DNA of 18,202 nt from Candidatus Thorarchaeota archaeon (GTDB lineage Archaea; Asgardarchaeota; Thorarchaeia; Thorarchaeales; Thorarchaeaceae): the NCBI GenBank assembly GCA_048882385.1, contig JBHLRQ010000065.1:1-18202 (forward strand), given 5' to 3'. Position 1 is the first letter of the stretch, and every line of letters begins with the position of its first letter. Positions 1 to 15,938 of the stretch are shown piece after piece. Below the pieces are notes generated by a model that searched no databases, was not told the origin of the DNA, and worked only from the letters and a program-made list of their open reading frames with translations. A program made the position numbers and the translations under genes.

Positions 1-1
1 T

Positions 2-1159: not shown

Positions 1160-1198
1160 TATGTAGAACGATATAGTATGTGGCACGATATATATTTT
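1160..1198. promoter_or_regulatory. Two tandem pseudo-palindromic operator-like repeats plus a TATA-like element for padR (minus strand)
   Basis: TATGTAGAACGATATA (1160-1175) and TATGTGGCACGATATA (1177-1192) are 14/16 identical with a 17-bp period. The minus-strand AAAATATATAT at 1188-1198 overlaps the second copy. Confidence 0.6.
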
Positions 1199-1275
1199 AC
1201 TCTGTCTATTTTAGACTGAAAGAAGGCCCCAAACACCTTAATATGGAACAATATCATCGGACCCTTGAGGTGCTC

Positions 1276-1671
1276 GTGCTGAGTATAATTGACCATATTA
1301 CAACGCTGCTTGATGATGTGGAAATAAAATACACTCGTGAAGACAATGTTCTGATGATGCGTTGGAAGACAGACCACTTTGAGGATCTGAAAATCAAGAT
1401 CGTATCAAACAAAGATGAATCATGGGCTTACATTGTAGCTCCTTTCACTAATTTCTATGAAGTTGAAGAAAGCAAGAGGATGAAGCTTGCATACGATATG
1501 CTCAAAGAATCTTGGAAGGCTAATGGTGTAAAGTTCGCAATTGACGATGACGATGACATCATTGTCATCGCTGAAACAAATGACACGGACCTCACTGGCG
1601 ATGAGATACGAACCCTAGTGGGCCATGTAGTACATGCTTGTGATACTCTCTGGGAAATCTATCCTGCATAA
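1276..1671 (+). CDS. YbjN/CesT (type III secretion chaperone fold)-like protein
   Basis: About 130 aa and acidic, with the pattern MLKESWKANGVKFAIDDDDDIIVIAE...LTGDEIRTLV resembling YbjN-like proteins. Likely start is GTG 1276 after SD GAGGTG (1267-1272); the track ORF begins at 1180. Confidence 0.7.
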   Translation: MLSIIDHITTLLDDVEIKYTREDNVLMMRWKTDHFEDLKIKIVSNKDESWAYIVAPFTNFYEVEESKRMKLAYDMLKESWKANGVKFAIDDDDDIIVIAETNDTDLTGDEIRTLVGHVVHACDTLWEIYPA

Positions 1672-1770
1672 ATTCCCTTTCAATTGACACCTGGTTTTAA
1701 TACCGGGCATCACCCTTCGGGATATAGGTTCGACATCTTCATAAGTCGAAAGACAGCGCTGGTGTAGTTC

Positions 1771-2310
1771 ATGACTAAAAAAGGCCCTGAAGCATTCCCT
1801 CGTGAGAAAATGGAGCGGCTTGTGAACATCTTCTATCCAAAACGAGCATCCTTCATTTTTTACTATGTTTTTGGTGTGGTTGTTTTCATTGTTGGCCTTG
1901 GTTTCAATGTAACTGCCGCTGCTGACTTTATTATCCACAATATGGTTTCATGGGTTGCTGGATTAGCAGCAATGCTCTTAGGAATTCTCATTTTCGCTTT
2001 AGCTGAAAGTCGAAGATGGTTTACACTGTATATCATCACATCATGGAATGTAAGAGTGAGAAAAGGAGTTCTCCATAGAAGGACTGTAAGAGTCTTCTAT
2101 GACGAAATAACTAATGTCATAAGTTGTGGTCCTACTGATGAACGCCGAATTGGGATGGGGGATGTTGAAATCTATTCGAGCTCAGATACTACAAAGCCTA
2201 CGCTGGTCTTCGATGGTGTCCACAATCCTGATGGTGTAAAGGAAATTATCTTGAGATTTGTAATGACTACCTCGGATCCACCCCCATGGGCACACCTTGA
2301 TCGAACATGA
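1771..2310 (+). CDS. Membrane protein with bacterial PH domain (bPH_2-like)
   Basis: Two N-terminal TM helices, then YIITSWNVRVRKGVLHRRTVRVFYDEITNV...ERRIGMGDVEIYS...FDGVHNPDGVKEII, matching the bPH_2 pattern. Confidence 0.8.
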   Translation: MTKKGPEAFPREKMERLVNIFYPKRASFIFYYVFGVVVFIVGLGFNVTAAADFIIHNMVSWVAGLAAMLLGILIFALAESRRWFTLYIITSWNVRVRKGVLHRRTVRVFYDEITNVISCGPTDERRIGMGDVEIYSSSDTTKPTLVFDGVHNPDGVKEIILRFVMTTSDPPPWAHLDRT

Positions 2311-2348
2311 AAAAGAGAAAGGTCTGCTGAGATGATGTCACCTCAGCA
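2311..2348 (-). terminator. Hairpin plus pyrimidine tract ending the 812-aa gene
   Basis: Minus strand TGCTGAGGTGA-CA-TCATCTCAGCA (2325-2348; a G-U pair forms only on the minus strand), followed by GACCTTTCTCTTTTT. It lies between convergent genes. Confidence 0.6.
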
Positions 2349-2359
2349 ATCCTTGTCAA

Positions 2360-4798
2360 TTACTTCTTTCCACTTCTTTTCTTAGAGAGTACGAAGACAA
2401 TCACCAACACAACAATAATTCCCCCGCCGATGAGTGCAAGAAGCATTGGATCGACCGAAAGTCCCGCAACAACCTCGAATGAACCAGTAACGGAGCTCCA
2501 AGTACCGACACCACTCTCCATGAAGATTGTGAAGTTCATTATACCTGGAACATCTGGAGTCCACGAATGCGAGTATCGGTCCCCTAGAGATGTCATCGTA
2601 TGATTGGAACCATCGTATTCGATGAGTACTTGATTGACTCCGAGGAAGTATGTGACGTTCGAGGCAACCTCAACTTCCTCACCAAGAGGTACAGGTGATG
2701 GTGTCACAAGAGGTCCATCAAAATCGGGGACTGAAGTCAAGACTTCATACTTGAAGCTCAACTCTTTCCATGAGGTCCAGATACCAGTGATGTCACATGT
2801 ACGTACTCTGGAGTAGTATCTTGTTGCATCCACAAGTGGTAATCCTGCATATTCAACATCGCTTTCAGGTCGAATGAAATCTATAGACATGTCATAAGTA
2901 AGAGTACCATTTCCTACACTATCGAACCCTCCACTATTTAGATCCCAAGCATGATATCCGCCTTCACTTCCGCCTTCATATGTGAATAAGCAGATAGCGT
3001 TACCGCTAATTAGTGATCCCCAACGGAATTCTACCAGCAGATCCATCTCATTCTTGAAATAGAATATATTGTCAACATCAACAACCATTACTGAACCTAA
3101 GTTGCGGACAGTGTAGTTCGCTTCACTCAGTACTAGCGTGGGAGTAACGCCTCCGTAATTATATGTCCAGGTACCATTTTGTAGTCTACCTAAGACAGGG
3201 GTTTCACAAAGATATACTTCGAAGTCTTCAAACTGGACATCAGTTCCTCCAATAAAGACATTGAAGAATAGCTTGTCAATATAACCTGTCTTTGATATCA
3301 GTGAATTGTTGTACTTCCACACAATCCTGCCTGGATATCCCACTGTGGTATCGAATGGAGACGAAATGCCGATAGGTGATTCAGATGTATAAATCTCTTC
3401 AGATACTAGTTCAATATCCAAACTATGACATCTTGGGGAGAGATACCCCGCAGTAGTGGCAGTATAGTCTCCTGCCTGTCCATATTCGTAAGCCACCCAT
3501 CCAACGGATGAACTGGCATCAAGCTCTGAAATTGAAAGGGTTCCATCCAGACCTGTAAACCTAATTTCAATTATCAGACTCAAATGATGGTTTAGGACAA
3601 AGCTGTTTTCCACATCTATTGTCAAAATACTGTCATGGATGAACGCCTCGTAAGCATCAGTTCTCAGAACAGTGATCGGAATCGCATTACCATAATTGCC
3701 CTCGAAATCAGAACCAAGTGCTCCGGAAGTTACTGTGCTTGCCATCCTTACAACTAGATTCTCTAATGTAAGTGCTCCTTCATCCTTAACCACGTAGAAA
3801 TGAAGCTTATCAACAGTGCCTGATCGATTTAGTATGGAACTATCGTACTTGTACTGGAATCTTACCTCGCTATCAGTTTCAAATGGTATTGCATTCTGAG
3901 ATAAGTTGGCATAGAATATAGGCTGGATTGAAGTACTCGAGTCACTCCACAACATTGTTTCATTATAGATAGGATCATTCCATACTTCAACTTCATACCC
4001 GTATTGGAAATCGTTTGGATCTGGATCATAATGCATCCATGAAATCATTGGCGTCGGATTTTGGATATAATCAAGTAGAGGTCCAGATGAAATCCCCTCA
4101 ATAGTGACTTCCTCGATTGATGGTGTTGTATAGCTCACTGCAAGGTAAGCTGCTCTAAACTGATCATACTCGTCTTCAATGAATCCTCTTCCACTTATCA
4201 GACTAATCGATTCATCATGATTTTTCAATACTTCAGTCAGAATCTTATCGCCAGATAGTGATGTACGAAAATCTTGTGTCACATCCCAACTGTGCCATTC
4301 ACCAATTACGAAATCATCAATAACATCAGTGGGTGTTTGAGAGAATGAAGGTTGATTATTCCAAGTAATCAAGGTTTCATCCCAAGAATCATCATCGCAA
4401 TAGTACGCTCCTATAGGAACATCAGTAGATGATACAACCACTCCCTGGAGGAATGCAAACATCTGAACATTGGAAAATACAAATTCTTCTGCAATATGTG
4501 AAAGATCAAATTTGACAAATGATCTAGCAAGGCTATTAGAACCATCCAGTCCGACTAACAGGCCTCCTAAACTGGTTTGACCATGATAATTCGAATCTCC
4601 AGTGCTCCAATTCAAAACGGTTTCTTCTTCATAAACAGGTACGATTAGCGTTTCAAAACTCCCATCTTCACTACATATTGGTTGATTAGAATCTGCTAGT
4701 TTAAACTCAAAGGCTAAATTGAAATCTGAAGCAGTTGGCATCACTAGTACTAGGCATATCATTAATACAATCATACTGCAAAATAATCGATTCCTCAT
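2360..4798 (-). CDS. Secreted, membrane-anchored surface protein: DNRLRE (CBM96-like) domain, FN3-like domain split by two internal repeats, Ig-like domain, C-terminal TM anchor
   Basis: N-terminal signal peptide; RSFVKFDLSHI and WDETLITWNNQP (DNRLRE-type motifs); PMISW..DPDPNDFQYGYEVEVW and YAGLPL..ATRYYSRVRTCD.TG.WTSW (FN3 like the GH78 N-terminal domain); C-terminal LLALIGGGIIVVLVIVFVL-SKKRSGKK. Confidence 0.8.
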   Translation of the reverse strand: MRNRLFCSMIVLMICLVLVMPTASDFNLAFEFKLADSNQPICSEDGSFETLIVPVYEEETVLNWSTGDSNYHGQTSLGGLLVGLDGSNSLARSFVKFDLSHIAEEFVFSNVQMFAFLQGVVVSSTDVPIGAYYCDDDSWDETLITWNNQPSFSQTPTDVIDDFVIGEWHSWDVTQDFRTSLSGDKILTEVLKNHDESISLISGRGFIEDEYDQFRAAYLAVSYTTPSIEEVTIEGISSGPLLDYIQNPTPMISWMHYDPDPNDFQYGYEVEVWNDPIYNETMLWSDSSTSIQPIFYANLSQNAIPFETDSEVRFQYKYDSSILNRSGTVDKLHFYVVKDEGALTLENLVVRMASTVTSGALGSDFEGNYGNAIPITVLRTDAYEAFIHDSILTIDVENSFVLNHHLSLIIEIRFTGLDGTLSISELDASSSVGWVAYEYGQAGDYTATTAGYLSPRCHSLDIELVSEEIYTSESPIGISSPFDTTVGYPGRIVWKYNNSLISKTGYIDKLFFNVFIGGTDVQFEDFEVYLCETPVLGRLQNGTWTYNYGGVTPTLVLSEANYTVRNLGSVMVVDVDNIFYFKNEMDLLVEFRWGSLISGNAICLFTYEGGSEGGYHAWDLNSGGFDSVGNGTLTYDMSIDFIRPESDVEYAGLPLVDATRYYSRVRTCDITGIWTSWKELSFKYEVLTSVPDFDGPLVTPSPVPLGEEVEVASNVTYFLGVNQVLIEYDGSNHTMTSLGDRYSHSWTPDVPGIMNFTIFMESGVGTWSSVTGSFEVVAGLSVDPMLLALIGGGIIVVLVIVFVLSKKRSGKK

Positions 4799-4975
4799 TT
4801 CATCCCCTCAATGATCAGATCATTCTCAGACTTCACCCTTATTGAGTTGGATATGTTGATTGCAATGCGATTCGTGTCTTATTTTTCTTGTGAGTAAACT
4901 ATAGAAGCCCTCAAAAGCTATCAACACAAAAGAAATCAAGGTTCGATACAAAAAGAAAAGTGGAGAGGTATAGAG

Positions 4976-5707
4976 GTGACCCGTTTCACCATTAGGTATG
5001 TTGCATCAGATGGCGAGAAATATCAGGTTGAGAAAGATGACTATTACACTGAAATAGACCTCTCAGACTCCAGCATAAAATCCATCAGTCTTGAGCCACT
5101 TGGCCAGTGCTCAAGTCTGGAAAAATTGAATCTAGACACAAACCTTCTGACTGAGATAGATCTATCACCTTTATCAAACTGCTCTAGTTTAAAGATGCTC
5201 AGCATCACTTCTAATGAACTAACAGACATTGAACTAGAACCTCTCTCCAAATGCTATGCACTCCAAGCTCTGGAGCTTTCTGACAATATGCTATTTGAGA
5301 TAGATTTGGAACCTCTGAGAAAATGCACTTCACTCCGTTGGTTGTATGTTGCAGATAACCGTCTTAGAGATATTGATCTTTCGCCACTCGAGGATAATTC
5401 AAAATTACAGTATCTCGTTCTATCTGGCAATCTTCTTAGAGAGATTGACCTATCATGCCTAAGTAAAGCAGAGGACCTCAGGTATCTTCATCTAAATGAG
5501 AATGCGTTGGAGCGAATTGACATCTCTGTACTTTTCAACTTTGAAAATCTTGAATCACTCGTAATTGACGAAAAAACAGTCATTACTGCAAATCACAAGC
5601 TCAAACACCTTCATTACTTTCCTGATCCTATAAACGAGAGACTCGATGATATTGAATGGTCTCATGAAGTTGTGGAATCTGGAATTGAAAGAGATAGTAC
5701 AACATAA
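4976..5707 (+). CDS. Leucine-rich repeat protein (24-aa LxxLxLxxNxLxxIDLxPLxxCxx repeats), no signal peptide
   Basis: Six full plus partial 24-aa repeats. GTG start preceded by GGAGAGGT. Confidence 0.92.
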   Translation: MTRFTIRYVASDGEKYQVEKDDYYTEIDLSDSSIKSISLEPLGQCSSLEKLNLDTNLLTEIDLSPLSNCSSLKMLSITSNELTDIELEPLSKCYALQALELSDNMLFEIDLEPLRKCTSLRWLYVADNRLRDIDLSPLEDNSKLQYLVLSGNLLREIDLSCLSKAEDLRYLHLNENALERIDISVLFNFENLESLVIDEKTVITANHKLKHLHYFPDPINERLDDIEWSHEVVESGIERDSTT

Positions 5708-5773
5708 TACTCAACGATTTATGAAGAGTGATTAAACTGAAAAATGCGTGGATGACGTACAGGGGCCTCTCCT

Positions 5774-6610
5774 ATGTCTGAGATTCTCATAAAATTCACA
5801 ATCGAAAAGGGAACTGAACTTATTTTTCAAGCAAACAATGATGTTTCAGAAATTGACCTTTCGGGAAGAAGTATAGTAGAAATAGACCTTAGTCCACTTG
5901 TTGAATGTGTAAATCTTCGAAATCTTAACCTATCTGCCAATCTCATCAAAAGCATTAATCTTGAACCACTTAGTCAGTGCGCTAGCTTAGAGAAATTATT
6001 CCTCAGCTCAAATCTTTTGACGTCTCTTGATCTTTCTCCTTTGGCTTCTTGCACAAATTTAGATACTTTATCTCTTGAGATCAACAAGTTGCAGAGGATT
6101 GATCTCTCTCCGCTTTTAAATTGCCTTAGATTACAGGAACTCAATCTTCACTCTAATGACTTTATTACAATCGACCTTTCTCCACTAGGTAGGTGCTCAG
6201 GACTAAGGTTTCTTAGACTAGACAGTAATCAGCTCTATGATGTGGATCTTGAACCCATATCCAAATGTTCGAGTCTTCAGGAACTCTTCCTGGAGAATAA
6301 TCGACTTGAAACTGTAGACTTGTCTCCTGTTAGTGGATTGACATCTCTGGAAGGCTTATGGCTTCGTTCGATCCAGATTCTACAGATAGACCTGCATCCA
6401 TTGATGGAGTGTACCAATCTTCTCTGGTTAGATTTAAGTGAGAATCAAATGAAGACAGTGGATGTTTCTCCACTATTCTATTGTAAAGACCTAGAATCCT
6501 TCATGATTGATGAAGCAATTCCTCTAATGGCAAAAGTTGAGTTAAATGATGCAGATTGGCCTATAGCGTTTGAATCAATAAAAGAACGAATCTTCTGGGT
6601 GCAGAATTAA
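5774..6610 (+). CDS. Leucine-rich repeat protein, paralog of the upstream gene
   Basis: Eight full plus partial 24-aa repeats. It shares the short N-cap (I.(Y/F)....G) and the C-cap (LES..IDE.....A...L....P.....ER...W) with the upstream LRR. Confidence 0.92.
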   Translation: MSEILIKFTIEKGTELIFQANNDVSEIDLSGRSIVEIDLSPLVECVNLRNLNLSANLIKSINLEPLSQCASLEKLFLSSNLLTSLDLSPLASCTNLDTLSLEINKLQRIDLSPLLNCLRLQELNLHSNDFITIDLSPLGRCSGLRFLRLDSNQLYDVDLEPISKCSSLQELFLENNRLETVDLSPVSGLTSLEGLWLRSIQILQIDLHPLMECTNLLWLDLSENQMKTVDVSPLFYCKDLESFMIDEAIPLMAKVELNDADWPIAFESIKERIFWVQN

Positions 6611-6655
6611 GCTCTTCTGTCATACCCCGGTGACACTAGCTCTAATCTTGCGTTA

Positions 6656-7342
6656 ATGCAATTTGAACCTGTGGAATTCATGACTGCCACTGATGATAAT
6701 ACAGCTAGAATGACTCTCCGGATTGCAGGTGTATATCAAGAGATACGTGATATTTGGGCAAAGAGATTGGACAAGTATTTCACACAGATAGAATCTCTAA
6801 TTGACGGGCAATGGTTAGAAACTGAAGACATTCTTGGCATAATCAAAGAATCACGTTTGGCATCTCGTGAAGCTTTGGATGGTCTGGGTAGCGATTTGAG
6901 TTCTGAGCTTGTTCATGCTTCTAATGGCATTGTGGCTAGATATGAAGCTATGAGGTCCTCACTTGTTGAAGAAATTGTAGATTTACGAAATGAAATTAGT
7001 AATTTAACTTCGGGAGATGAAAACTCTCTAAGACGAGAAAACATTGCATTGAAAGATGCTGTATTCTCAGTACCTGAGTTTAAACTCCTTCAGGTCATTC
7101 AAAAACATCGAAGAACCACATATGATCAACTGTGTAATGAAACGAGTCAAAAGAAATCAGTTATTCGAAAGCTTGTGAAAGCACTAATGAGTAGAGGTTA
7201 CATTAACATCGATAAAAAAGCTCGTCCTCATGCTATTGTATATCTCTTTGCTCCATGGAATCAGATGAATTCTGATGATCAACAGATCCTTGATCAACAG
7301 CTGTCTTCACCTTATTTACACGCTCAAGCTGAACATCGCTAG
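6656..7342 (+). CDS. Helical/coiled-coil protein with C-terminal winged helix-turn-helix
   Basis: Heptad region LVEEIVDLRNEISNL...LRRENIALKD, then EFKLLQVIQKHRRTTYDQLCNETSQKKSVIRKLVKALMSRGYINID, which reads as a wHTH. Confidence 0.7.
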   Translation: MQFEPVEFMTATDDNTARMTLRIAGVYQEIRDIWAKRLDKYFTQIESLIDGQWLETEDILGIIKESRLASREALDGLGSDLSSELVHASNGIVARYEAMRSSLVEEIVDLRNEISNLTSGDENSLRRENIALKDAVFSVPEFKLLQVIQKHRRTTYDQLCNETSQKKSVIRKLVKALMSRGYINIDKKARPHAIVYLFAPWNQMNSDDQQILDQQLSSPYLHAQAEHR

Positions 7343-8207
7343 CCCCTAGTCGTTTTGCTATTCTTCGCATCACTTTACTTGTCCAACCAATTGTTAGCTC
7401 ATTGATTATGATTATTGGAATTAGAAATGCCATTAACATAAATGGCAGACCAATGGTCCATCCCAAACTGACAAGAATCTCTGATATCTCCAAATCTACT
7501 CCAACTACAACAAACTTTTGGAAGAAGTATCGATTAAACATAGTAATTGGAAAAGCAAGAATACCAAACCCTCCAACAAGATTCGAATACCAACGTCCTA
7601 CGCCTTCTGTGTCTGGACAACGTCTCATTTCAAGATGATCTGGTTTCACATGAGCTACTATACCCGCATCATTCAATATCCAAGTAGGAGAAAATATCGC
7701 AATACTTACCACTAAACCGATTAATGCTCCGAGCATTGTTAGTAGAGGATGCAATGAACGAATAACTTCCCTCACATCACCTTCAGGAATTTGAGGAATC
7801 CGAAAGATTAATCCTTGGAGAAGACTGTTTACTATTTCTCCCAGAGATAATGCAAACAAAGCTGGGACAACAGATCTCTTCATAATTCTGAACCAATCAA
7901 ATCCATGGCCAATATTCATGATGTCAATGTTATACGTGGCAAATCGGAACATTCTTGCTATCACAAGCAAGATCAGAGCAATTGGTAGTGTCAGTATAAT
8001 AAACTCGATGAAGAATATTGGGATCAAGATAAGTAGAAGGAAGTTGACATCAAAACCTACTGTTCCATCAACCGCTGTAATAAGGTCAAATGTAGGTAAA
8101 AGGCCAGTTACTGTCAATGTAAGATTCCTTGTTAGAAAAAGGGTTAATATAATGCCAGCTGCTGAAAATAGTATTGGTAGAACAAATCGTTTGTAATCAT
8201 CTGACAT
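7233..8207 (-). CDS. Uncharacterised polytopic membrane protein (about 6 TM)
   Basis: 324-aa ORF with multiple hydrophobic segments and SD-like GTAGGT upstream. No family recognised. Confidence 0.8.
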   Translation of the reverse strand: MSDDYKRFVLPILFSAAGIILTLFLTRNLTLTVTGLLPTFDLITAVDGTVGFDVNFLLLILIPIFFIEFIILTLPIALILLVIARMFRFATYNIDIMNIGHGFDWFRIMKRSVVPALFALSLGEIVNSLLQGLIFRIPQIPEGDVREVIRSLHPLLTMLGALIGLVVSIAIFSPTWILNDAGIVAHVKPDHLEMRRCPDTEGVGRWYSNLVGGFGILAFPITMFNRYFFQKFVVVGVDLEISEILVSLGWTIGLPFMLMAFLIPIIIINELTIGWTSKVMRRIAKRLGASDVQLERVNKVKTAVDQGSVDHQNSSDSMEQRDIQ

Positions 8208-8274
8208 TGAAACTACCTACAGCCACAAATCTTCTTAGAACATCTAAGCATATCGGTGCTTGCCCTTCCTAACG

Positions 8275-8333
8275 TTTATATGTAGATGTCTACATAGCAT
8301 AAGTAGAGTTCTACATATGTAGGTGTCGACATA
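8275..8333 (+). promoter_or_regulatory. TATA box plus three PadR-type operators (ATGT-N8-ACAT consensus)
   Basis: TTTATA at 8275-8280; TATGTAGA-TG-TCTACATA (8279-8296, perfect inverted repeat); TAAGTAGA-GT-TCTACATA (8300-8317); TATGTAGG-TG-TCGACATA (8316-8333, ending on the A of the ATG). Confidence 0.8.
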
Positions 8334-8908
8334 TGACATTCAGTAGTATGGGCAGAAGACGACCACACGGAACAAGACTCAGTCCTGTTCAGATTTTGAT
8401 TCTTGCTATTTTAAAGCAGAAACCAGCTCATGGGTATGTAGTACTTCAGGAGATGGAGGAAAAGCTCGGATCAAGAAGGGTCAAGAGTGGAACAGTCTAT
8501 CCTGCACTCCACCGACTTGTAGAGAAAGAGCTTATTCTTGGAAGACATGTACCCCAGGATGATGGACCAGACACTGTTGAGTATCAACTCACATCAAAGG
8601 GACATAAGATACTCTCCACAGCACTACAAAATCTGGATTCGGAGTGGGGTTTCCAAGGAAAGATATGGCAGTTTCTGGGCTCAACAGCTGGTGAGAGGGC
8701 GGCTGCGCCTCTATTGGACTGGACCGTTCGTGAACGTAGCCCAATTGGATTTGCAGCCATGAAACACAGATGTAAATCTGGAAAGTGTTCTGAAAAGCAT
8801 GTCGAGTTCCTAAAACAGTATCGTTCATACCTGCAACATGAACTCGATTGGGTTAATCGACGCCTTAAGGATATGAAGGACTCTGACGAAATGGCAGGAG
8901 GTGAATAG
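8333..8908 (+). CDS. PadR-family regulator with C-terminal Cys-containing coiled-coil extension
   Basis: ILILAILKQKPAHGYVVLQEM...SGTVYPALHRLVEKELI...YQLTSKGHKIL. The C-terminus reads HRCKSGKCSEKHVEFLKQYRSYLQHELDWVNRRL. Confidence 0.92.
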   Translation: MTFSSMGRRRPHGTRLSPVQILILAILKQKPAHGYVVLQEMEEKLGSRRVKSGTVYPALHRLVEKELILGRHVPQDDGPDTVEYQLTSKGHKILSTALQNLDSEWGFQGKIWQFLGSTAGERAAAPLLDWTVRERSPIGFAAMKHRCKSGKCSEKHVEFLKQYRSYLQHELDWVNRRLKDMKDSDEMAGGE

Positions 8909-8914
8909 ACAAGA

Positions 8915-9124
8915 ATGTGTGATGAACATAGGGGTCGTGGATATGGTCACTTCTTCATGGGTCCGGGATTCTATAACATGTGCTGTTCTCCAAAGCATGA
9001 TGGACTTAGCAAAGAAACTAGAATAAAGTACCTGGAAGCAATGAAATCAAAGCTAGAAGACCGGATCAAACACATTGACCAGAGGATTGAGAAAATTCAG
9101 AAGGGTGAAGCTCAAGAAGTATAA
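8915..9124 (+). CDS. Small Cys/His/Gly-rich plus coiled-coil protein (DUF5320-like)
   Basis: Strong SD GGAGGTGA at 8897-8904. MCDEHRGRGYGHFFMGPGFYNMCCSPKH is followed by heptads RIKYLEAMKSKLEDRIKHIDQRIEKI. Confidence 0.8.
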   Translation: MCDEHRGRGYGHFFMGPGFYNMCCSPKHDGLSKETRIKYLEAMKSKLEDRIKHIDQRIEKIQKGEAQEV

Positions 9125-9148
9125 TTCCCAATTCTGATAGCGCATAAA

Positions 9149-9177
9149 CGCGACGTCGCGAACTCTCTTTCTCTCTC
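9149..9177 (+). terminator. GC-rich palindrome plus pyrimidine tract after the padR operon
   Basis: CGCGACGTCGCG (perfect 12-bp palindrome, 9149-9160) followed by AACTCTCTTTCTCTCTC. Confidence 0.45.
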
Positions 9178-9210
9178 GGTGGTTCAACAATCATCAACTT
9201 ACTAATGAAA

Positions 9211-9882
9211 TCATTTTTTCATCGTATCAGCTAGGTTCTTGAATATCTCAGGTTCTTCAAGCAAGACCCCAATCATTCCTATTGTTCTTGCCATATCCTT
9301 TATGCTGAAAACGTCAACATCACCGAAGAAGGTTGCAAGCTCCTCATTGTCAATTGTTTTCTCAAATAGCTCTCTAACCACTTGACTCCAAGACTCTAGA
9401 TACTTTGACATATGTTTCTTGAAATCTTCTCGTCGTTCTTGAGAAACCTCAAAGAACATGAGAGCAAGGTCACTTAGCTTAGCAAGTTCCTGTTGTCCTT
9501 GTTCTGTTTCCCACCATTTAGATCCCTTTACTTCTCTTTCTTGGAAAAACACTTTTCCCGTTCTACAGTATAATTTCTCGGTCTGTCTGCTTCCTTGGTA
9601 TTTCCTATGTCCTGCGATTTTTACTAGTCCTGCTTTATCCAGAATATCAAGGTGCCTATAGATCGTCTTGAGACCCTTACTGTATACAGGTCCTTCTGGG
9701 TCTTCAAGAAAGAGATGATGTATTTGTTTCACAGTCATGAACTGCTTTCTTCCAAGTGCTCCAATGATTTCGATGTTTTCATTTATCAACTTCATCTGTT
9801 CTTCGTTTGTCATGATAACAGGTTCTGGTTCTGACGTAATGAAATCCTGCGGCTGGACCTTCTTCTTTGACATTTCCCTCAT
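9211..9882 (-). CDS. Winged-helix (ArsR-like) transcriptional regulator with C-terminal helical domain
   Basis: IIGALGRKQFMTVKQIH...LKTIYRHLDILDKAGLVKIAG...TEKLYCRTG. An alternative start is ATG 9873 after GAGGGA. Confidence 0.8.
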   Translation of the reverse strand: MREMSKKKVQPQDFITSEPEPVIMTNEEQMKLINENIEIIGALGRKQFMTVKQIHHLFLEDPEGPVYSKGLKTIYRHLDILDKAGLVKIAGHRKYQGSRQTEKLYCRTGKVFFQEREVKGSKWWETEQGQQELAKLSDLALMFFEVSQERREDFKKHMSKYLESWSQVVRELFEKTIDNEELATFFGDVDVFSIKDMARTIGMIGVLLEEPEIFKNLADTMKK

Positions 9883-9939
9883 CTCTTTGCTCTGATTATT
9901 GATCTAGACAAGAGTGACTTCTGACGCTGATGGGAAGAC

Positions 9940-9997
9940 TTTTATCAATTGTCATTGACGATAGTCATTAATAGACAATCGTTGTCATATATGACAA
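9940..9997. promoter_or_regulatory. Divergent promoter with GTC/GAC inverted-repeat sites
   Basis: TTTTAT at 9940-9945; ATTGTCA-T-TGACGAT (9948-9962); ATAGTC-N7-GACAAT (9961-9979); perfect 16-bp palindrome TTGTCATATATGACAA (9982-9997). Confidence 0.6.
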
Positions 9998-10004
9998 TGA
10001 TAGG

Positions 10005-10910
10005 ATGTGCTTACAAATGCCTTCTACGGAATATATCGATGTAAGAAAGAACATTGTTCTGATGAGAATAACAGGTTCTGGATTTAATGAGGGAAATGTG
10101 ACATGCATTGAGTTAGATGACAAACTTGTCTTTGTTGATGTAGGTCGTAAGGCAGAACCTGTCAAGAAATTCAGGCTCAAAATGGAAGAGAGGTTCGGGA
10201 AAGAGACGTCTATGGTTCTTTTGACACATACACATCAGGATCACTATTTTGGTGTTGAAGCCTTCAAAGATGTGCCAATTGTAACTACATATCATGGATT
10301 GAAAGCTGTTACTGATAACCTCCGTGATTCATGGTCGCATGAAGGCCGATTAAAGACTATTGAGGAAGTTAAAGGATTCTTTAGAGAGAAGAATGAACCA
10401 CTACCTGAACGTTTCAATGGTTGGGACAAAGAACTACTTGCAACCAATCTGTTTAGCCCTACATTTGGAGTAAAAGATGAAATCAAGCTAGAATCTAAAG
10501 ATAGATTCTTGTTTTATCGTGCTATAGGAGGGCATTCGGATTGCTCGGCTTATTTGCACTTTGAACCTGAAAACATTTTGATTACTGGTGATAATCTCGT
10601 TGCTGAACATGCAAGTAACTCTGCATGCATGTTGGCTGGATTCGATGCCATGGGAGTTGAAATTCTTCGAAGATTCGAGGACTATAAAGCTAGTTTGCTG
10701 ATTCCAGGTCATGGCCCGATTGTTGACACCAAATATGTTCGAAAGTCGCGTGAATGGTTCACCAAGATGTTTGATCATTTGAGGGCACTGAAAGAGAAAG
10801 AGACTCCTGTTGAAGACGTAGTTGCTGATTCTTCTCTTCCAAAATTCTTCGAAGAGAACAAGCCTAATCAGTGGAACAATATCCTAAGCTTCTGGTATGA
10901 AAAAGTCTAG
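10005..10910 (+). CDS. Metallo-beta-lactamase-fold hydrolase (cyclase-like)
   Basis: THTHQDH (HxHxDH), GGHSD, ITGDN and IPGHGP metal-binding motifs. Confidence 0.9.
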   Translation: MCLQMPSTEYIDVRKNIVLMRITGSGFNEGNVTCIELDDKLVFVDVGRKAEPVKKFRLKMEERFGKETSMVLLTHTHQDHYFGVEAFKDVPIVTTYHGLKAVTDNLRDSWSHEGRLKTIEEVKGFFREKNEPLPERFNGWDKELLATNLFSPTFGVKDEIKLESKDRFLFYRAIGGHSDCSAYLHFEPENILITGDNLVAEHASNSACMLAGFDAMGVEILRRFEDYKASLLIPGHGPIVDTKYVRKSREWFTKMFDHLRALKEKETPVEDVVADSSLPKFFEENKPNQWNNILSFWYEKV

Positions 10911-10940
10911 GTTGATTTAGTGTTTGAGTGATGGGAAGAA

Positions 10941-10980
10941 TAACGGTTGTGCATGCACACTGCACAACTGTTATATATAA
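10941..10980 (+). promoter_or_regulatory. 13-bp inverted repeat abutting a TATA box upstream of tlpA-ccdA
   Basis: TAACGGTTGTGCA-TGCACAC-TGCACAACTGTTA (10941-10973, one G-T pair), overlapping TTATATATAA at 10971-10980. Confidence 0.55.
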
Positions 10981-11031
10981 AAACAGCAGAATCAATACTG
11001 ACATCGACCCGGCAGCTAGAGGATATCGTAA

Positions 11032-11601
11032 ATGGATCCAGAAAAGATAGCAATTGTGGGAGTGACATTGGCCATAGTGACCGTTGGATTACTCATGGGA
11101 GTTTCTTTTCTAACATTTCCAACTGGAGATGCAGATGGCGACACACCACTTACTGGAATAGTCGCTGATCGTGATCTTCTTGAGTTAGGTCTAGAAGCAC
11201 CTACTGATTGGACATTCGAGATGTCAGATGGCTCGACGTTAACATTGAGTGACTTTCGTGGTCAAGTAGTGATTGTGGACCTCATGGCAACATGGTGCAC
11301 TTCTTGTGCTGCACAGAATTCTTACCTGGAAACCATACATCAGAACCTAGTTGGTACCGCTACAATTATCTCTCTAACAGTTGATGCTAGTGAAACTGCT
11401 CAGATGATGGCCACATATAAGTCTGATAAGGGTCTTCTATGGGACCATGGTGTAGATACGGGAGAAAAATTTGATAATTACTTCAATGTTCAATACATAC
11501 CCACCATAGTTCTTATTGATGCTAATGGCATCTTTAGGTATATGCATGAAGGTATCTGGAGTGCAGGAAGTATAAGTGACGCGGTAGCATCAATCCTCTA
11601 G
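11032..11601 (+). CDS. Membrane-anchored TlpA/ResA-like thiol-disulfide oxidoreductase
   Basis: N-terminal TM; LSDFRGQVVIVDLMATWCTSC (CxxC); cis-Pro motif YIPTIVLIDANG. Confidence 0.92.
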   Translation: MDPEKIAIVGVTLAIVTVGLLMGVSFLTFPTGDADGDTPLTGIVADRDLLELGLEAPTDWTFEMSDGSTLTLSDFRGQVVIVDLMATWCTSCAAQNSYLETIHQNLVGTATIISLTVDASETAQMMATYKSDKGLLWDHGVDTGEKFDNYFNVQYIPTIVLIDANGIFRYMHEGIWSAGSISDAVASIL

Positions 11602-11616
11602 TAGGAGTTGTGTGGG

Positions 11617-12309
11617 GTGCAAGGGTTCATAGAGATAGGAGTACTACTTGCTAAGATAGCTGGGGTCTTTGGATCTGGACTCTACATAGCTATGTCTCCT
11701 TGTCTTTTTCCCCTACTTCCTCTTTTCCTGTTGAATAGCTTGAAATCGGCTGATAGCAGGAAACGGAGTGTGTTGGTGACAGCAGTACTTGTAATAGGGA
11801 TACTCAGCTCATTAGCAATTTTCATGTCTATTGCGTGGCTCATCGGAGCATTGCTGATTGATTACTACATACGAATTCAGGCAATGCTTGGATTAATCAT
11901 CATCTTTCTGGGTGTGATTACGATGTCGTCTACTCTCAAAAATAAGCTTGGGATATCAAGTTTAAATTTGAGATCTCATCCGTCAGCACCTTCAAACTTG
12001 ATGAGTGTGTATTTTGTAGGTCTAGGATATTCCTTACTTGCCGCACCCTGTTCAGGTTCAGCAATCTTTGGTGTTATTGCTCTCTTTGGAGCTGAAACAG
12101 GATTTCTTGTCCCGATTCTATTATTTGTTGTACTTTCAATTGCTGTTGCGATTCCATACTTTGCAATAGCGTTAGTTACAGGTGAGGCACGAATGAGAAT
12201 GGCAGCGTCAATCAGCACACATGCTCGTAAGGTTGAGATTGCTGCAGGAGTCATACTCATCACAATTGGCTTATTGCTATTCTCTCAACTCTTCGGATTC
12301 CGATTCTAA
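11617..12309 (+). CDS. ccdA: CcdA / DsbD transmembrane-domain electron transporter
   Basis: About 6 TM helices with the two Pro-Cys motifs SPCLFPLLP and APCSG. Start set at GTG 11617 after AGGAG (the track uses TTG 11608). Confidence 0.88.
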   Translation: MQGFIEIGVLLAKIAGVFGSGLYIAMSPCLFPLLPLFLLNSLKSADSRKRSVLVTAVLVIGILSSLAIFMSIAWLIGALLIDYYIRIQAMLGLIIIFLGVITMSSTLKNKLGISSLNLRSHPSAPSNLMSVYFVGLGYSLLAAPCSGSAIFGVIALFGAETGFLVPILLFVVLSIAVAIPYFAIALVTGEARMRMAASISTHARKVEIAAGVILITIGLLLFSQLFGFRF

Positions 12310-12328
12310 CCTCATCATGGTCAGTGAA

Positions 12329-12360
12329 AAGATGTAAAACGCAAGACATCTTCTTTTCTT
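12329..12360 (+). terminator. Possible hairpin plus T-rich tract after ccdA
   Basis: AAGATGT-N10-ACATCTT (12329-12352) followed by CTTTTCTT. Confidence 0.3.
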
Positions 12361-12361
12361 C

Positions 12362-14209
12362 ATGCGGCTTTCCAATAATATCAATTTGGATGCACTGATA
12401 GATATTCCACGCATAAATCGGTGGAGAGTGTCACCCAATAAGAGATACATTGGATTATCCGTAAATAGGATTCAAGAGAATTATGATGTCTTTTTGAAGA
12501 CAACATACTCAACAGGAAATTTGGTTCCTCTCACAAAAACTTCTGAAATCACCATAATTGAGGATTGGGCACCAGATTCGAAGTCAATTCTTGTTTCAGA
12601 AGACAAGGCAGGTAATGAGCGTGTAGCACTATATCGTGTATTCCTTGAGAATCCCTTCGAGTTGGATCCAATTACTCCGATTGATCCAAATTACTACATC
12701 CATGGAGGTTGTTTCGGACCCAGAGGAGATTTTGTTGCGTATGCTATGAATTACGATGTCGACACAAAAAGGGAAACAGAAACATTTCGTATTGTCTTAC
12801 ATTATCTGGAAACAAATGAGAGAATAATTGTAGCACGTCCTGATAAACCGACTTTCCCTGAATTGGAGGTTGATCCAAAGAATCGACTCGTCCTCTACAA
12901 AAGATCTGATGAGGATCCATCAGGTTCTCAGTGGTGGATTGTTTCGTTGAACGGAGACGAGGACCGAGAAATCCTTAATTTTGGACCCAAAGCAAAGGTT
13001 GATGCTGCATGGACCTACGATGGGAGAATCCTGTTTAACACTGATACATTGGATGGTGTTCAATACAACTCGGTAGCAGTTGGCCTTTATGACATATCTA
13101 CCGGAAGAATAGATTGGCTATCCAAACCGACTGAAGGAGGAACATATGATGGCTCATTTGTTCCGTCTCATTCCCATCACATTGTTTTGTATGAAGACAT
13201 CGAAACTAGAAGACGATTCTATATCTATGACTTGAAGACTGATGTTCTTGAGAATGTCAATCTACAAAGGGGAAATCTATGGCCAATTACGAATCTTGAA
13301 GCAGATGAATGGATTGGAATCTTTTTCAGCTCCACTATTCCAAGGAATATTGTCAAATTTAATCTAGACGCATTTGACACAGAGTCTTTCACTCCTCTAA
13401 CTGATATCTTAAGTTCCACACAACTCAAGTCAGAGGATTTGACACCTGCTGAAGATTTCAGGTGGATATCCTCAGATAATACAATGGTTCATGGTTGGCT
13501 CTATAGATCTATGAACCCAAATGGGAAGACGATTGTTACCGTTCACGGAGGACCAACATCACATTCAGGAGATGCTTTTGATCCAGAGATACAATACTTT
13601 TGTTCTTTGGGCTATAATGTATTAGATCCAAACTATCGAGGTTCTACCGGCTATGGGATTAACTTCAGGGAATTGATCAAGAAAGATGGATGGGGTGGTC
13701 TCGATAAGGAAGATATCCGAACAGGTATTGAAACAATGATTGAGAAAGGAATTGCTGTACCTCACAAAGTGGGAATCTATGGAACTAGTTATGGTGGTTA
13801 TATGAGTTGGAATGCTATTACTCACTTTCCGACAAAGGTGATTGCTGCCGCTGCTCCAATTTGTGGAATGACTGACCTTGTTGTTGATTATGAAACTACT
13901 AAACCTGATCTGAGACCCTATTCTGAAGAAATGCTTGGTGGCTCACCAAAAGAAATTCCAGAAAAATACAAAGAAAGATCTCCAATTAATTACATTCAAA
14001 ACATCAAGGGAAAGCTGCTAATTGTACAAGGTCTACGAGATCCTAATGTAACAAAAGCTAACGTATCCGAAGTAGAGAAAAAACTGGAATTGTATCGTAT
14101 TCAGTACGAAAAGCTAATGTTCGAAGATGAAGGACATGGGATCAAACGTGAGCGAAATGTAAAGACTCTCCTCTCAAGATTGGCAGAATTCTTTGATTCT
14201 TCGCTTTGA
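12362..14209 (+). CDS. S9-family (acylaminoacyl/prolyl oligopeptidase-like) serine peptidase
   Basis: N-terminal propeller-like region; VHGGP, PNYRGSTGYG, catalytic GTSYGG, DPNV and EGH. Confidence 0.95.
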   Translation: MRLSNNINLDALIDIPRINRWRVSPNKRYIGLSVNRIQENYDVFLKTTYSTGNLVPLTKTSEITIIEDWAPDSKSILVSEDKAGNERVALYRVFLENPFELDPITPIDPNYYIHGGCFGPRGDFVAYAMNYDVDTKRETETFRIVLHYLETNERIIVARPDKPTFPELEVDPKNRLVLYKRSDEDPSGSQWWIVSLNGDEDREILNFGPKAKVDAAWTYDGRILFNTDTLDGVQYNSVAVGLYDISTGRIDWLSKPTEGGTYDGSFVPSHSHHIVLYEDIETRRRFYIYDLKTDVLENVNLQRGNLWPITNLEADEWIGIFFSSTIPRNIVKFNLDAFDTESFTPLTDILSSTQLKSEDLTPAEDFRWISSDNTMVHGWLYRSMNPNGKTIVTVHGGPTSHSGDAFDPEIQYFCSLGYNVLDPNYRGSTGYGINFRELIKKDGWGGLDKEDIRTGIETMIEKGIAVPHKVGIYGTSYGGYMSWNAITHFPTKVIAAAAPICGMTDLVVDYETTKPDLRPYSEEMLGGSPKEIPEKYKERSPINYIQNIKGKLLIVQGLRDPNVTKANVSEVEKKLELYRIQYEKLMFEDEGHGIKRERNVKTLLSRLAEFFDSSL

Positions 14210-14216
14210 TTCTCCT

Positions 14217-14972
14217 CTATCCAAATAGATTCTCAGAGTATGGGCGAAGAATTTGACTTGCTTTTCCCTCTTCCTCTTCAAATTTGATTCCCTTGACGAT
14301 GACCATTGGAATGCCTTCTCCAGCCTGACCCATGACTAGTTCAGAGGCTGCTGCAACCTGATCTGCAAGACAGACTAGAGAACTCCTCAATTCTCTCCCA
14401 AATAGATCTTCTTTTCCTGAATTGTGTATAAATGGTGACATCCCAGCCACTCCAATTGCTAGGTTGACAGCACCTTTTCTCCAAGGTCTTCCCTGAGTAT
14501 CAGTCATAATGACCGGTACCTTGAATCCAACTTTCTTCGTGATTGCGTTGCTAATTCGTTGAGAAGACTCATCAGGATCATTTGGTAGTGCAACAAGAGT
14601 ATTTGTAGGTGCATTACTCTCATCGACACCAGAATAGTCTGTTATTATTCCATGTCGAGTCTTTGTAATCAATACTGGTTCTTCTCGTATGATTTCACTT
14701 GCTTCCTTGAGAGCTATCTCAATTTTTTCAGCCGGTATTCCAACTCGTTCAGAAATCTCCTTGGCTTTTTCAGTTACCACGATTTCCTCTAATCGGTAAA
14801 TACTTCGTTCAGCTATCGAAACGATTGTATGAGTGATAACGAGAATATCACCTGATTCTAGTTTCAGAGATTGGTTTTCTATTAGACCTGTGATTATATT
14901 TGGTATGTCATCTCCAGGATTTATCAATGGAACTCCTTGAACTGGAATGATCTCAATCCTGTTGTTAGTCAT
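14217..14972 (-). CDS. cofE: Coenzyme F420-0:L-glutamate ligase
   Basis: IEIIPVQGVPLINPGDD...GDILVITHTIVSIAE...SGVDESN...LPNDPDES...IMTDTQGRPWRKG...DLFGREL...ADQVAAASELVMGQAGEGIPMVIVKG. True start is probably ATG 14972, overlapping the upstream stop by 8 nt. Confidence 0.93.
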   Translation of the reverse strand: MTNNRIEIIPVQGVPLINPGDDIPNIITGLIENQSLKLESGDILVITHTIVSIAERSIYRLEEIVVTEKAKEISERVGIPAEKIEIALKEASEIIREEPVLITKTRHGIITDYSGVDESNAPTNTLVALPNDPDESSQRISNAITKKVGFKVPVIMTDTQGRPWRKGAVNLAIGVAGMSPFIHNSGKEDLFGRELRSSLVCLADQVAAASELVMGQAGEGIPMVIVKGIKFEEEEGKASQILRPYSENLFG

Positions 14973-15600
14973 CGTTATCTGATGCAAGCTCTTCTTCTGA
15001 TATTTCTTCGTACTGTTGGTCTTTTGAAGTGCGGTATTTTCCAAGACCTGCTTGGATGGCAAGACTCTCTGGTATCATCCTATACATAATAATTCCAACA
15101 AAAATATTGATTCCAGCTTGAAGGATGTTCCATGGGATATAGGCTATCGAATAAGTAATGGCTGATTCGAAGGGCATGTATCCAAAAAGAGTGAATAGCA
15201 TGATATTTCCGAAGTACATACCAATTGATCGAAAAGTTGCAGCGAATATGAAATAGATGCCTGCAGTCCACTTCCAATCAATATCCCGGTTTCTCAATAC
15301 CAGTTTTGCTACGATTAGACCTAGTAGGGTCAGAATTTCTGAGAGTCCTTTGAACGCAGCACCGTTGAAATTTCTGTATGCTATGAAGACCCACATGATG
15401 CCTACTGATAGAACCGAGAGAACTATTCCAAGTCCTAGAAAGATAATCATGATAGGAATTCCTGTCCAGTCAATAGTGAAGCCAGGTACTGGAGTATAGA
15501 AGTCAGTCAATCCAACAATGGGAAAAATCTCAAGTGCTATGATGATTGAGGTAAAAATCGCAAACACTGCAATGCTCTTCGAATCTGTTCTAATGTCCAT
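14965..15600 (-). CDS. ECF transporter S-component (substrate-binding membrane subunit)
   Basis: About 6 TM, 211 aa. IAVFAIFTSIIIALEIFP...TIDWTGIPIMIIFLGLG and C-terminal YIPWNILQAGINI follow the RibU/PanT-like S-component layout. Confidence 0.75.
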   Translation of the reverse strand: MDIRTDSKSIAVFAIFTSIIIALEIFPIVGLTDFYTPVPGFTIDWTGIPIMIIFLGLGIVLSVLSVGIMWVFIAYRNFNGAAFKGLSEILTLLGLIVAKLVLRNRDIDWKWTAGIYFIFAATFRSIGMYFGNIMLFTLFGYMPFESAITYSIAYIPWNILQAGINIFVGIIMYRMIPESLAIQAGLGKYRTSKDQQYEEISEEELASDNDD

Positions 15601-15684
15601 AGTTTCTCTGTTCTCCTATCGCTCCCTCAACTAGAGCTCTGATTTTGCGCTGTACATATCTAAGATAAAAGGGCATTGCATATG

Positions 15685-15723
15685 AAAGAAAGGGAAAAGT
15701 CCCCTGTCGTCTGACCGGGGACT
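15685..15723 (-). terminator. GC hairpin plus U-rich tract downstream of the zinc-finger microprotein
   Basis: Minus strand AGTCCCC-G-GTC-AGAC-GAC-A-GGGGACT (15698-15723) followed by TTTCCCTTTCTTT. Confidence 0.65.
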
Positions 15724-15735
15724 ATAGTTAAAGCA

Positions 15736-15846
15736 CTACTTGTGTTTTTGATGTACCTCCTTGGCATGCTTCTTCATCTCCTCCTGAGATCCGAGTTTTT
15801 TACCACAGATCTTACATTCGAATTGATCTCGTTCTTCATTCATCAT
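15736..15846 (-). CDS. Single C2H2 zinc-finger microprotein (36 aa)
   Basis: Not in the ORF track: MMNEERDQFECKICGKKLGSQEEMKKHAKEVHQKHK*, i.e. F-x-C-x2-C-x12-H-x4-H. It has its own BRE/TATA-like element upstream and a terminator downstream. Confidence 0.8.
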   Translation of the reverse strand: MMNEERDQFECKICGKKLGSQEEMKKHAKEVHQKHK

Positions 15847-15863
15847 AAATCAGAATAACTATT

Positions 15864-15887
15864 GTTAATAACAATTATTAACTTTTC
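15864..15887 (-). promoter_or_regulatory. BRE/TATA-like element overlapped by a perfect inverted repeat
   Basis: Minus strand GAAAAG-TTAATAA about 30 nt upstream of ATG 15846; GTTAATAA-CAA-TTATTAAC at 15864-15882. Confidence 0.5.
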
Positions 15888-15938
15888 TGCAAATACTAAT
15901 AAAAGCATATATAACCTGATTTGCTTTATGCAAAAGAG

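Follow-up and report, generated by a model that had tools for sequence, protein, structure and literature searches.

A PadR-family repressor of Asgard archaea and an adjacent DUF5320-like mini-protein with a probably homologous C-terminal helix

Introduction

In an archaeal contig, the gene of a PadR-family repressor is followed directly by the gene of a protein of 69 amino acids (aa), here called the mini-protein, and both products end in a helix of similar sequence. This raises the question of whether the two helices are related by descent and, if so, whether the mini-protein acts on the repressor through its helix. The contig (JBHLRQ010000065.1, from the Candidatus Thorarchaeota assembly GCA_048882385.1) was analyzed from position 1 to 18,202 of the forward strand, and this whole stretch is referred to as the window. 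The host is an Asgard archaeon, and the nearest homologues of both proteins are labelled Thorarchaeota. A sequence-only reading of the window had proposed that the mini-protein is a copy of the PadR dimerisation module without the DNA-binding domain, which pairs with the repressor and is gated by metal or redox state. In the present analysis, the observation behind this proposal was partly confirmed and its interpretation was partly supported.

Results

Relationship between the two helices

The coordinates and sequences reported earlier for the two genes were correct, and the start codon of the mini-protein gene lies 6 nt past the PadR stop codon. The elements of the two genes are listed below by window position, with the evidence for each in brackets; pLDDT denotes the predicted local distance difference test.

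8333..8908, + strand: PadR-family repressor, two-domain, subfamily-1-like, 191 aa (PF03551, E 1.3e-18)
8399..8614, + strand: winged helix-turn-helix (wHTH) DNA-binding domain, PadR residues 23-94 (Pfam range; the model shows helices and wing)
8738..8788, + strand: SPIGFAAMK motif and Cys147/Cys152, PadR residues 136-152, preceding the last helix (conservation)
8789..8896, + strand: DUF5320-like C-terminal PadR helix, residues 153-188 (model, DUF5320 profile and hhalign)
8897..8904, + strand: Shine-Dalgarno-like GGAGGTGA within the last PadR codons, 10 nt 5' of the mini-protein ATG (sequence reading)
8915..9124, + strand: mini-protein, 69 aa, short DUF5320-like family member (PF17253, 22.1 bits against a cut-off of 27)
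8915..9007, + strand: N-terminal part of the mini-protein, rich in Cys, His, aromatic residues and Gly, residues 1-31 (predicted disordered, pLDDT 41-54)
9011..9115, + strand: single amphipathic helix of the mini-protein, residues 33-67 (pLDDT 80-92; profile comparisons)

Families of 38 mini-proteins (alignment A3) and 32 PadRs (alignment A4) were collected from genome loci and protein searches and compared using hhalign. Close homologues only gave a match probability of 20%, and the comparison of the 38 mini-proteins with the 32 PadRs gave 82.4% (E 1e-5) over 37 columns, in exactly the register noted earlier. The value was 89.7% for the PadR tail alone against the mini-proteins, and it fell to about 1% when either side was reversed. 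An independent profile of 80 metagenome mini-proteins matched the Asgard PadR tail at 96.5% (E 9.9e-10), whereas the same profile, and also A3, reached only 0.3-0.6% against a decoy, the C-terminal helices of short (subfamily-2) PadRs. The profile-profile comparison of the two families thus showed a similarity beyond chance (82-96%).

Consistent patterns were found in genome-wide searches and in the residues of the helices. When a hidden Markov model (HMM) of the PadR tail was run over 37,967 frames of the genome, the mini-protein ranked first after PadR itself (E 0.0047), and searches of other Asgard genomes with the mini-protein profile gave matches to PadR tails with E values, per genome, between 1e-6 and 1e-9. 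The window genome has no DUF5320-like helix besides those of the mini-protein and the PadR tail, save for one generic coiled-coil frame at E 0.6. Both families have the same a/d heptad core, with a basic residue at one a position in all 32 PadRs and all 38 mini-proteins and a hydrophobic or aromatic residue at the g position that precedes it. From these sequence comparisons, the helix of the mini-protein and the tail helix of PadR are very probably homologous. Recent gene conversion was considered and dropped, as tails score no better against mini-proteins of their own lineage than against those of other lineages.

The proposal that the mini-protein copies the dimerisation module holds for this helix, which is akin to the PadR C-terminal helix, but does not extend to the stretch before it. 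A GFxxM motif and two Cys residues do occur ahead of both helices, as had been claimed; in the profile comparison of the PadR stretch with the N-terminal part of the mini-protein the value was 0.1%, equal to that of the reversed control, and homology of the two stretches is not supported.

The resemblance first noticed between the two sequences was evaluated separately. The ungapped pairing of PadR residues 153-182 with mini-protein residues 33-62 exists; it scores 36 with BLOSUM62, has 5 identities and a hydrophobic core that matches, and includes the six charge-swapped positions described earlier. As a single pair, the two sequences are not similar beyond chance. Plain shuffles reached the score in 2 of 20,000 cases, but shuffles that preserve the heptad did so in 281 of 20,000; it was attained by 10 further genome frames, the PadR frame being 12th of 37,967; and BLASTP of PadR against the mini-protein did not report the helix alignment, its best match (E 0.45) lying elsewhere. 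The warning in the sequence-only reading that coiled coils align by chance was therefore justified for the single pair, since shuffles and other genome frames reach its score.

These results are what would be expected if two amphipathic coiled-coil helices resembled each other by chance and the small open reading frame (ORF) were unrelated to the PadR tail. The DUF5320 matches of the window proteins, all under the Pfam cut-off, and the generic coiled-coil frame that touches the DUF5320 profile point the same way. This explanation is hard to reconcile with the reversed and decoy controls of the profile comparisons, with the matches to PadR tails in other Asgard genomes, with the fact that both families single out DUF5320 among 24,736 Pfam models, and with a small ORF that is intact and adjacent in 34 loci. 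Chance similarity was already disfavoured and is very improbable.

Assignment of the mini-protein to DUF5320

The best Pfam match of the mini-protein was DUF5320 (PF17253), with residues 5-60 on profile positions 45-98 and a score of 22.1 bits, which is under the gathering cut-off of 27; in the genome search the mini-protein passed this cut-off only "with its neighbours in the frame" (36.2). The PadR tail matched the same profile with residues 148-180 on positions 66-98 (E 0.067, 14.8 bits, below the cut-off of 27). At the family level, DUF5320 was matched by 27 of the 38 mini-proteins (E <=0.1), the next of the Pfam families by only 4, and it was the only non-wHTH family matched by most PadRs (27/32 at E <=1, best 5.2e-4).

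A search of 1.84 billion representative proteins with the profile of the 38 mini-proteins retrieved 116 relatives at E <=1e-3, mostly of 46-119 aa and with the same layout. Among 21 of these that were scanned, 14 matched DUF5320 at E <=0.01 and 7 of the 14 were above the cut-off; no PadR-sized protein with a recognisable PadR domain was found among the representatives by this search. Because the profile retrieves proteins that pass the DUF5320 cut-off, the mini-protein is classed here as a short, Cys/His-rich branch of DUF5320. In its structural model, disordered residues 1-30 are followed by the single helix of residues 33-67, and Cys, His, Gly, Met and aromatic residues abound in the N-terminal part. 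A search for longer fused forms, in which 8,000 candidates were scored, gave 2 matches; these lack Pfam domains and resemble read-through gene calls, and they are weak evidence either way on fusion.

A search for solved structures found none, and a literature search over about 8.4 million papers found no work on DUF5320 function, the two papers that name the family being unrelated to it. DUF5320 is widespread with no assigned function, and the present evidence suggests for it a concrete role, open to testing, in partnership with a winged-helix repressor.

The PadR protein and its dimerisation domain

The winged-helix domain of PadR (residues 23-94) passed the Pfam cut-off with 67.2 bits against 27 (PF03551). 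The AlphaFold2 model (pLDDT 78.4) showed the wHTH followed by three shorter helices (101-118, 121-134 and 137-148) and a long last helix (154-188). The best full-length Foldseek matches of this model were the two-domain PadRs 3l9f and 5x11, with a template modelling (TM) score of only about 0.4. The family profile (residues 22-182) aligned to residues 6-176 of the AphA chain 1yg2, that is, through the tail helix, and also to PadR 6jyi (13-181) and VanR 5z7b. A two-domain PadR with a separate helical C-terminal dimerisation domain, of about 19-22 kDa, is the definition of subfamily 1 as given in PMC5728393, where about 70% of the dimer interface of Bacillus subtilis PadR is attributed to the C-terminal domain. 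By model and profile, the window PadR, with 191 aa and a separate helical C-terminal domain, has this layout.

The alignment of the family profile to subfamily-1 structures includes the tail, and PadR dimerises mainly through its C-terminal domain; the PadR helix that resembles the mini-protein is therefore assigned as the last helix of the dimerisation domain. The earlier claim that the C-terminal helix of PadR serves dimerisation is supported by the alignment of the tail with the last dimerisation-domain helix of AphA 1yg2. By profile, the dimerisation domain of one family of Asgard PadRs thus terminates in a DUF5320-type helix. Ahead of this helix, S136-M143, K144 and C147 are invariant in 29 close PadR homologues; in the wider family, 24 of 32 members have at least 2 Cys before the last helix.

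Conservation of the gene pair

The locus scan was carried out with one genome per species and yielded 40 loci. An intact mini-protein homologue (E <1e-3) was present directly downstream of PadR in 34 of 35 assessable Asgard loci, with a stop-to-start gap of -22 to +46 nt, which confirmed the conservation of the pair. These 34 loci are labelled Thor-, Hermod-, Odin-, Sif-, Borr-, Wukong-, Hod- and Heimdallarchaeota. Outside them, one locus (L039) ends within the PadR gene, four (L040-L043) are non-Asgard with a match to the wHTH only, and one (L035) lacks the mini-protein. The latter, which is the same as L052 and lies on a Borrarchaeum-labelled contig, is the sole assessable Asgard locus of this type, and an unrelated 222-aa ORF is found about 130 nt past its PadR gene.

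A Shine-Dalgarno-like word, mostly GGAGGTGA, was detected 8-12 nt 5' of the mini-protein ATG in 29 of the 35 loci, including the window. In the window (8897-8908) and in related loci where this word falls within the PadR frame, its codons specify the conserved Gly-Gly-Glu with which these PadRs end; therefore, part of the conservation of the tail end may be a constraint of the ribosome-binding site.

In the metagenome set, 70 loci had enough upstream DNA to be assessed: a mini-protein of a wider kind comes after a PadR-like ORF in 59 of them, and 11 have no such ORF; 10 more loci were not judgeable. The PadRs of these metagenome loci (L056-L135) are short and their tails are unlike the mini-protein. 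They begin with Met-Cys-Gly ... Cys-x-Cys/His, and many also have an internal Cys-Gly-Cys-His, both proteins of the operon being Cys/His-rich.

Operators in the promoter region

The intergenic region upstream of PadR contains three tandem operators and is shared with a divergent gene.

7233..8207, - strand: divergent membrane-protein gene, 324 aa (ORF; shares the operator-bearing intergenic region)
8275..8281, + strand: TATA-like box TTTATAT, overlapping operator 1 (sequence reading)
8280..8295, + strand: operator 1, a perfect ATGT-N8-ACAT palindrome (pattern scan; kept in related loci)
8301..8316, + strand: operator 2, AAGT-N8-ACAT (pattern scan; kept in related loci)
8317..8332, + strand: operator 3, ending at the PadR start codon (pattern scan; kept in related loci)

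The ATGT/ACAT inverted repeat is described in PMC3506622 as the canonical operator motif of PadR proteins. At 8280-8332 the repeat was found by sequence in the form typical of subfamily 1, with a spacer of 8-10 nt and in the gene's own promoter. The three 16-bp palindromes account for 6 matches over both strands of the window, compared with 0.30 expected, and none of 200 shuffles reached 6. Exact GTAG-N4-CTAC sites numbered 26 in the 3.7-Mb genome against 52 expected, and operators 1 and 2 form the only exact pair within 40 bp. The arrangement of the operators is kept across lineages, and most related loci have the same TATA-like box ahead of the first palindrome; TTTATAT at 8275-8281 is thus read as a probable promoter box. 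The triple operator noted earlier is therefore real and conserved. Because three conserved canonical PadR operators abut the start codon of PadR, self-repression, probably together with repression of the divergent membrane-protein gene, is a sound inference.

Proposed action of the mini-protein on PadR

We favour a self-repressed two-gene operon in which the mini-protein docks on the C-terminal domain of PadR and tunes repression, and put the probability of this reading at about 40%. The PadR dimer would bind the three tandem ATGT-N8-ACAT palindromes, which cover its own TATA box up to the start codon, and would also control the divergent membrane-protein gene. The mini-protein would be translated from the Shine-Dalgarno sequence inside the last PadR codons, and its helix would pack on the PadR C-terminal domain and, much as SinI acts on SinR, alter DNA binding or the cooperativity of the operators. 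The Cys/His part of the mini-protein would respond to a metal, a metal-sulfur cluster or oxidation. In favour of this reading are the homology of the helices, the position of the PadR tail in the dimerisation domain, the close linkage of the two genes, the opposite family charges at e and g positions, the conserved operators, and a similar pairing of DUF5320-tailed NifX-like proteins with free DUF5320 genes in other Asgard genomes.

The geometry of such packing was considered from the family-level charges. Position e9 is Lys in PadR (Lys161 in the window) and Glu in the mini-protein (Glu41), and g18 is Glu in PadR (Glu170; 32/32) and Arg, His or Tyr in the mini-protein (Arg50 in the window); in addition, acidic residues occupy e9, e16 and e23 of the mini-protein and basic ones g4 and g25, and PadR has basic residues at e9 and e30. 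The reservation made earlier, that the charge swaps are not clearly at e and g, does not hold at the family level. These charges make a parallel heterodimer partly repulsive and pair opposite charges in other arrangements, and for this reason an antiparallel packing, or a four-helix or mixed bundle, is more likely than a parallel zipper.

A number of results weigh against this docking reading. The parallel heterodimer would contain repulsive e/g pairs, and the mini-protein alone would make a good parallel homodimer. The reverse search, with the mini-protein HMM run genome-wide, did not give a significant PadR match (E 2.2, fourth), and the comparison of the single pair and of the pre-helix stretches, as described above, gave nothing beyond chance or beyond the reversed control. 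With regard to gating, the pre-helix Cys are absent in 7 of the 32 PadR relatives, and a search of the window and the related loci examined found no gene for metal transport, metal resistance or cluster assembly.

The two partners also occur apart, which counts against the reading as well. Tail-bearing PadRs without a mini-protein were found in the genomes searched (L046, L047, L050, L051 and L140), and these precede Hsp20 or ATP-binding cassette (ABC) genes. Mini-proteins, in turn, adjoin the short PadRs with unlike tails and also an ArsR-like regulator. Free mini-proteins of 75-78 aa, located between the ArsR-like regulator and ABC transporter genes, matched the PadR-tail profile at E 5e-10 to 1e-6. 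On this genomic evidence the zipper of tail and mini-protein is apparently not required by either partner. As each occurs alone, mimicry of the helix cannot be the whole or general basis of the link between regulator and mini-protein.

Two of these arrangements showed further regularities. An Hsp20/alpha-crystallin gene follows the tail-bearing PadR on the same strand in L046, L047 and L140. In L136-L139 (genomes G070, G047, G064 and G038) an ArsR-like regulator, a Cys-bearing mini-protein, an ABC ATPase and an ABC-2 permease are encoded on one strand, and these mini-proteins fit the PadR-tail profile better than the mini-protein profile.

Role of the Cys/His-rich part

From its composition, the Cys/His part of the mini-protein is a candidate sensor of metal, cluster or redox state. 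Cys was found at residue 2 in 29 of the 38 mini-proteins, and 34 of the 38 have at least 2 Cys in the N-terminal part; mini-proteins of the wider metagenome set are richer still in Cys and His. On composition, the metal or redox gating proposed earlier is possible but weakly supported; 7 of the 32 PadRs have no pre-helix Cys, and no metal gene lies nearby.

The same part of the protein could serve a different purpose. In the main rival explanation, which is possible though rather unlikely, the mini-protein is a regulated product that handles a ligand: a coiled-coil homodimer whose Cys/His arms bind a metal or a metal-sulfur species and serve to buffer, store or chaperone it. PadR would then sense the same species itself, and the likeness of the helices would reflect shared ancestry of the dimerisation module. 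Such a role fits the frequency of Cys in the mini-proteins, and especially the wider loci, where the mini-proteins are richer in Cys/His and their short PadRs bear a Cys/His motif of their own at the N-terminus. It would also agree with the charges of the mini-protein helix, basic at g and acidic at e as expected of a parallel homodimer, with mini-proteins that remain linked to regulators without a DUF5320-like tail, and with free DUF5320 proteins that adjoin NifX-like cluster-binding proteins. It is less compatible with the gene content of the window and related loci, where the neighbours are a membrane protein without a known family, transporters of the major facilitator superfamily (MFS) and unrelated genes instead of the metal transporter, resistance or cluster-assembly genes looked for. 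Among 27 neighbour proteins of 12 related loci there was one P-type cation ATPase, whose Pfam domains are not those of the heavy-metal type. Moreover, two mini-proteins (L031 and L032) have no Cys at all, and the DUF5320-type helix on the Asgard PadR is left unexplained.

Neighbouring genes

The 324-aa membrane protein encoded divergently from PadR matched no family in Pfam or NCBIfam, and its only matches in a protein atlas were hypothetical proteins of Thorarchaeota. Of 11 Thorarchaeota-type loci, 9 have a homologue at the corresponding position, one of them partial, and the gene is a probable co-regulated target of PadR. Other non-regulator neighbours vary by lineage and include MFS transporters (L016, L022 and L024), a DUF998 membrane protein, an ABC-2 permease and unrelated enzymes.

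The recurrence of membrane and transport genes bears on another explanation, namely that the helices share descent, through partial duplication or fusion of a DUF5320 module, and the proteins do not cooperate through them. The mini-protein would then act elsewhere, for example on the neighbouring membrane or transport proteins, and would merely be co-expressed with the regulator. The membrane protein of the Thorarchaeota-type loci, the MFS genes, the ABC transporter genes that follow the pair of ArsR-like regulator and mini-protein, and the separate occurrence of tail and mini-protein are in line with this explanation. Across lineages, however, the regulator is the only constant neighbour of the mini-protein, and no other protein of the window genome carries the helix, so uncoupled proteins of shared descent are considered quite improbable.

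The wider surroundings of the operon were also compared. Downstream, two genes, one for a 223-aa winged-helix protein (9211-9882, - strand) and one for a protein of the metallo-beta-lactamase fold (10005-10910, + strand), separate the mini-protein gene from that of a thioredoxin/redoxin-like protein (11032-11601). The redoxin gene of 9 related Thorarchaeota loci comes no more than a few hundred bases after the mini-protein gene, and the two intervening genes have no counterpart there; these two genes (9211-10910) look like an insertion in the window genome. Upstream, two tandem leucine-rich-repeat genes (243 and 278 aa; 4976-6610) are mutual paralogues and are kept in 7 related loci. A 228-aa HTH_24 gene (6656-7342, + strand) is convergent with the membrane-protein gene (7233-8207, - strand), and the 3' ends of the two ORFs overlap by 110 nt (7233-7342).

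In RNA data, an 87-nt piece of a soil RNA-seq contig matched with 4 differences and runs into unlike sequence, indicating that it comes from a relative. In addition, a 272-nt contig from an unspecified kind of library covers 8831-9102.

Discussion

The docking of the mini-protein on PadR may be part of a broader pattern. NifX-like proteins (Nitro_FeMo-Co, 183-227 aa) with a DUF5320-like C-terminal helix adjoin one or two free DUF5320 genes in L048, L049, L054 and L055, which belong to other Asgard genomes. That a DUF5320-tailed protein and a free DUF5320 protein are encoded side by side more than once may point to a docking module of general use. The DUF5320 helix could even be a portable "zipper tag", by which Cys/His-rich mini-proteins dock on proteins with the same tail, such as PadR or the NifX-like carriers, although in this general form the idea is unlikely. 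If it were true, the metal or metal-sulfur load of the mini-protein would be read out directly as transcription, and the archaeal relatives of eukaryotes would have a control layer in the style of microProteins and Id, which would be the first function for DUF5320.

Comparison with known systems

The window PadR resembles the characterised proteins of PadR subfamily 1 (B. subtilis PadR, Vibrio cholerae AphA and VanR) in its wHTH and helical C-terminal dimerisation domain, its length of about 190 aa, its ATGT/ACAT operators and its autoregulation. Unlike AphA-type proteins, it has no match to PF10400, which we take to be the Pfam model of their C-terminal domain, among its Pfam matches. It also differs from the characterised members in its DUF5320-matching last helix, the conserved Cys pair before that helix, the three tandem operators and a constant mini-protein partner gene. 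A literature search on small partners of PadR, on PadR in Asgard archaea and on PadR in connection with cysteine-rich coiled coils returned nothing relevant, and no such partner was found for the characterised members.

The mini-protein resembles DUF5320 (PF17253) in having an N-terminal part rich in Gly, aromatic residues and Pro followed by one C-terminal coiled-coil helix. It is shorter, covering profile positions 45-98 only, scores below the cut-off and has a Cys/His-rich N-terminal part.

In CopY/CopZ and SmtB/SmtA, a winged-helix repressor is encoded beside a small Cys-rich protein. The layout is like that of PadR and the mini-protein, which have no metal transport or resistance genes nearby; the likeness is one of layout.

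Id proteins and microProteins are short proteins that keep only the dimerisation element of a transcription factor, and dominant-negative action has been shown for Id. The analogy to them made in the sequence-only reading is apt in that the mini-protein is a short protein that keeps a dimerisation element; the likeness is at the level of the concept, the folds are unrelated, dominant-negative action is established for Id only, and SinR/SinI comes closer.

The closest known analogue thus appears to be SinR/SinI of B. subtilis, together with SlrR/SlrA, in which a repressor likewise adjoins a small protein that shares its oligomerisation helices. The DNA-binding fold of SinR is a helix-turn-helix of the Xre/cI type, which differs from the winged helix of PadR. 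The shared module of SinR/SinI consists of two "helical hook" helices, whereas that of PadR and the mini-protein would be one long DUF5320-type helix, and the mini-protein has an extra Cys/His-rich part that SinI lacks. As reported in PMC3163267, the shared oligomerisation surface leads to a heterodimer that abolishes DNA binding, and sinI is transcribed under separate control by Spo0A. Like SinI, the mini-protein is homologous to the oligomerisation element of its repressor, as judged by hhalign (82-96%) and by the position of the PadR tail as the last helix of the C-terminal domain. In contrast to sinI, it appears to be co-translated from the message of the repressor, a further point against docking in the SinI manner: its Shine-Dalgarno sequence lies inside PadR codons, and no separate promoter was seen, no search aimed at one having been made. 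The association of PadR with the mini-protein is proposed here by analogy to this system. If the two helices pair, PadR and the mini-protein would represent, in an archaeon, the equivalent of SinI/SinR and of the microProteins of eukaryotes, and would form a compact sensor circuit of two genes and three operators that could easily be rebuilt in vitro.

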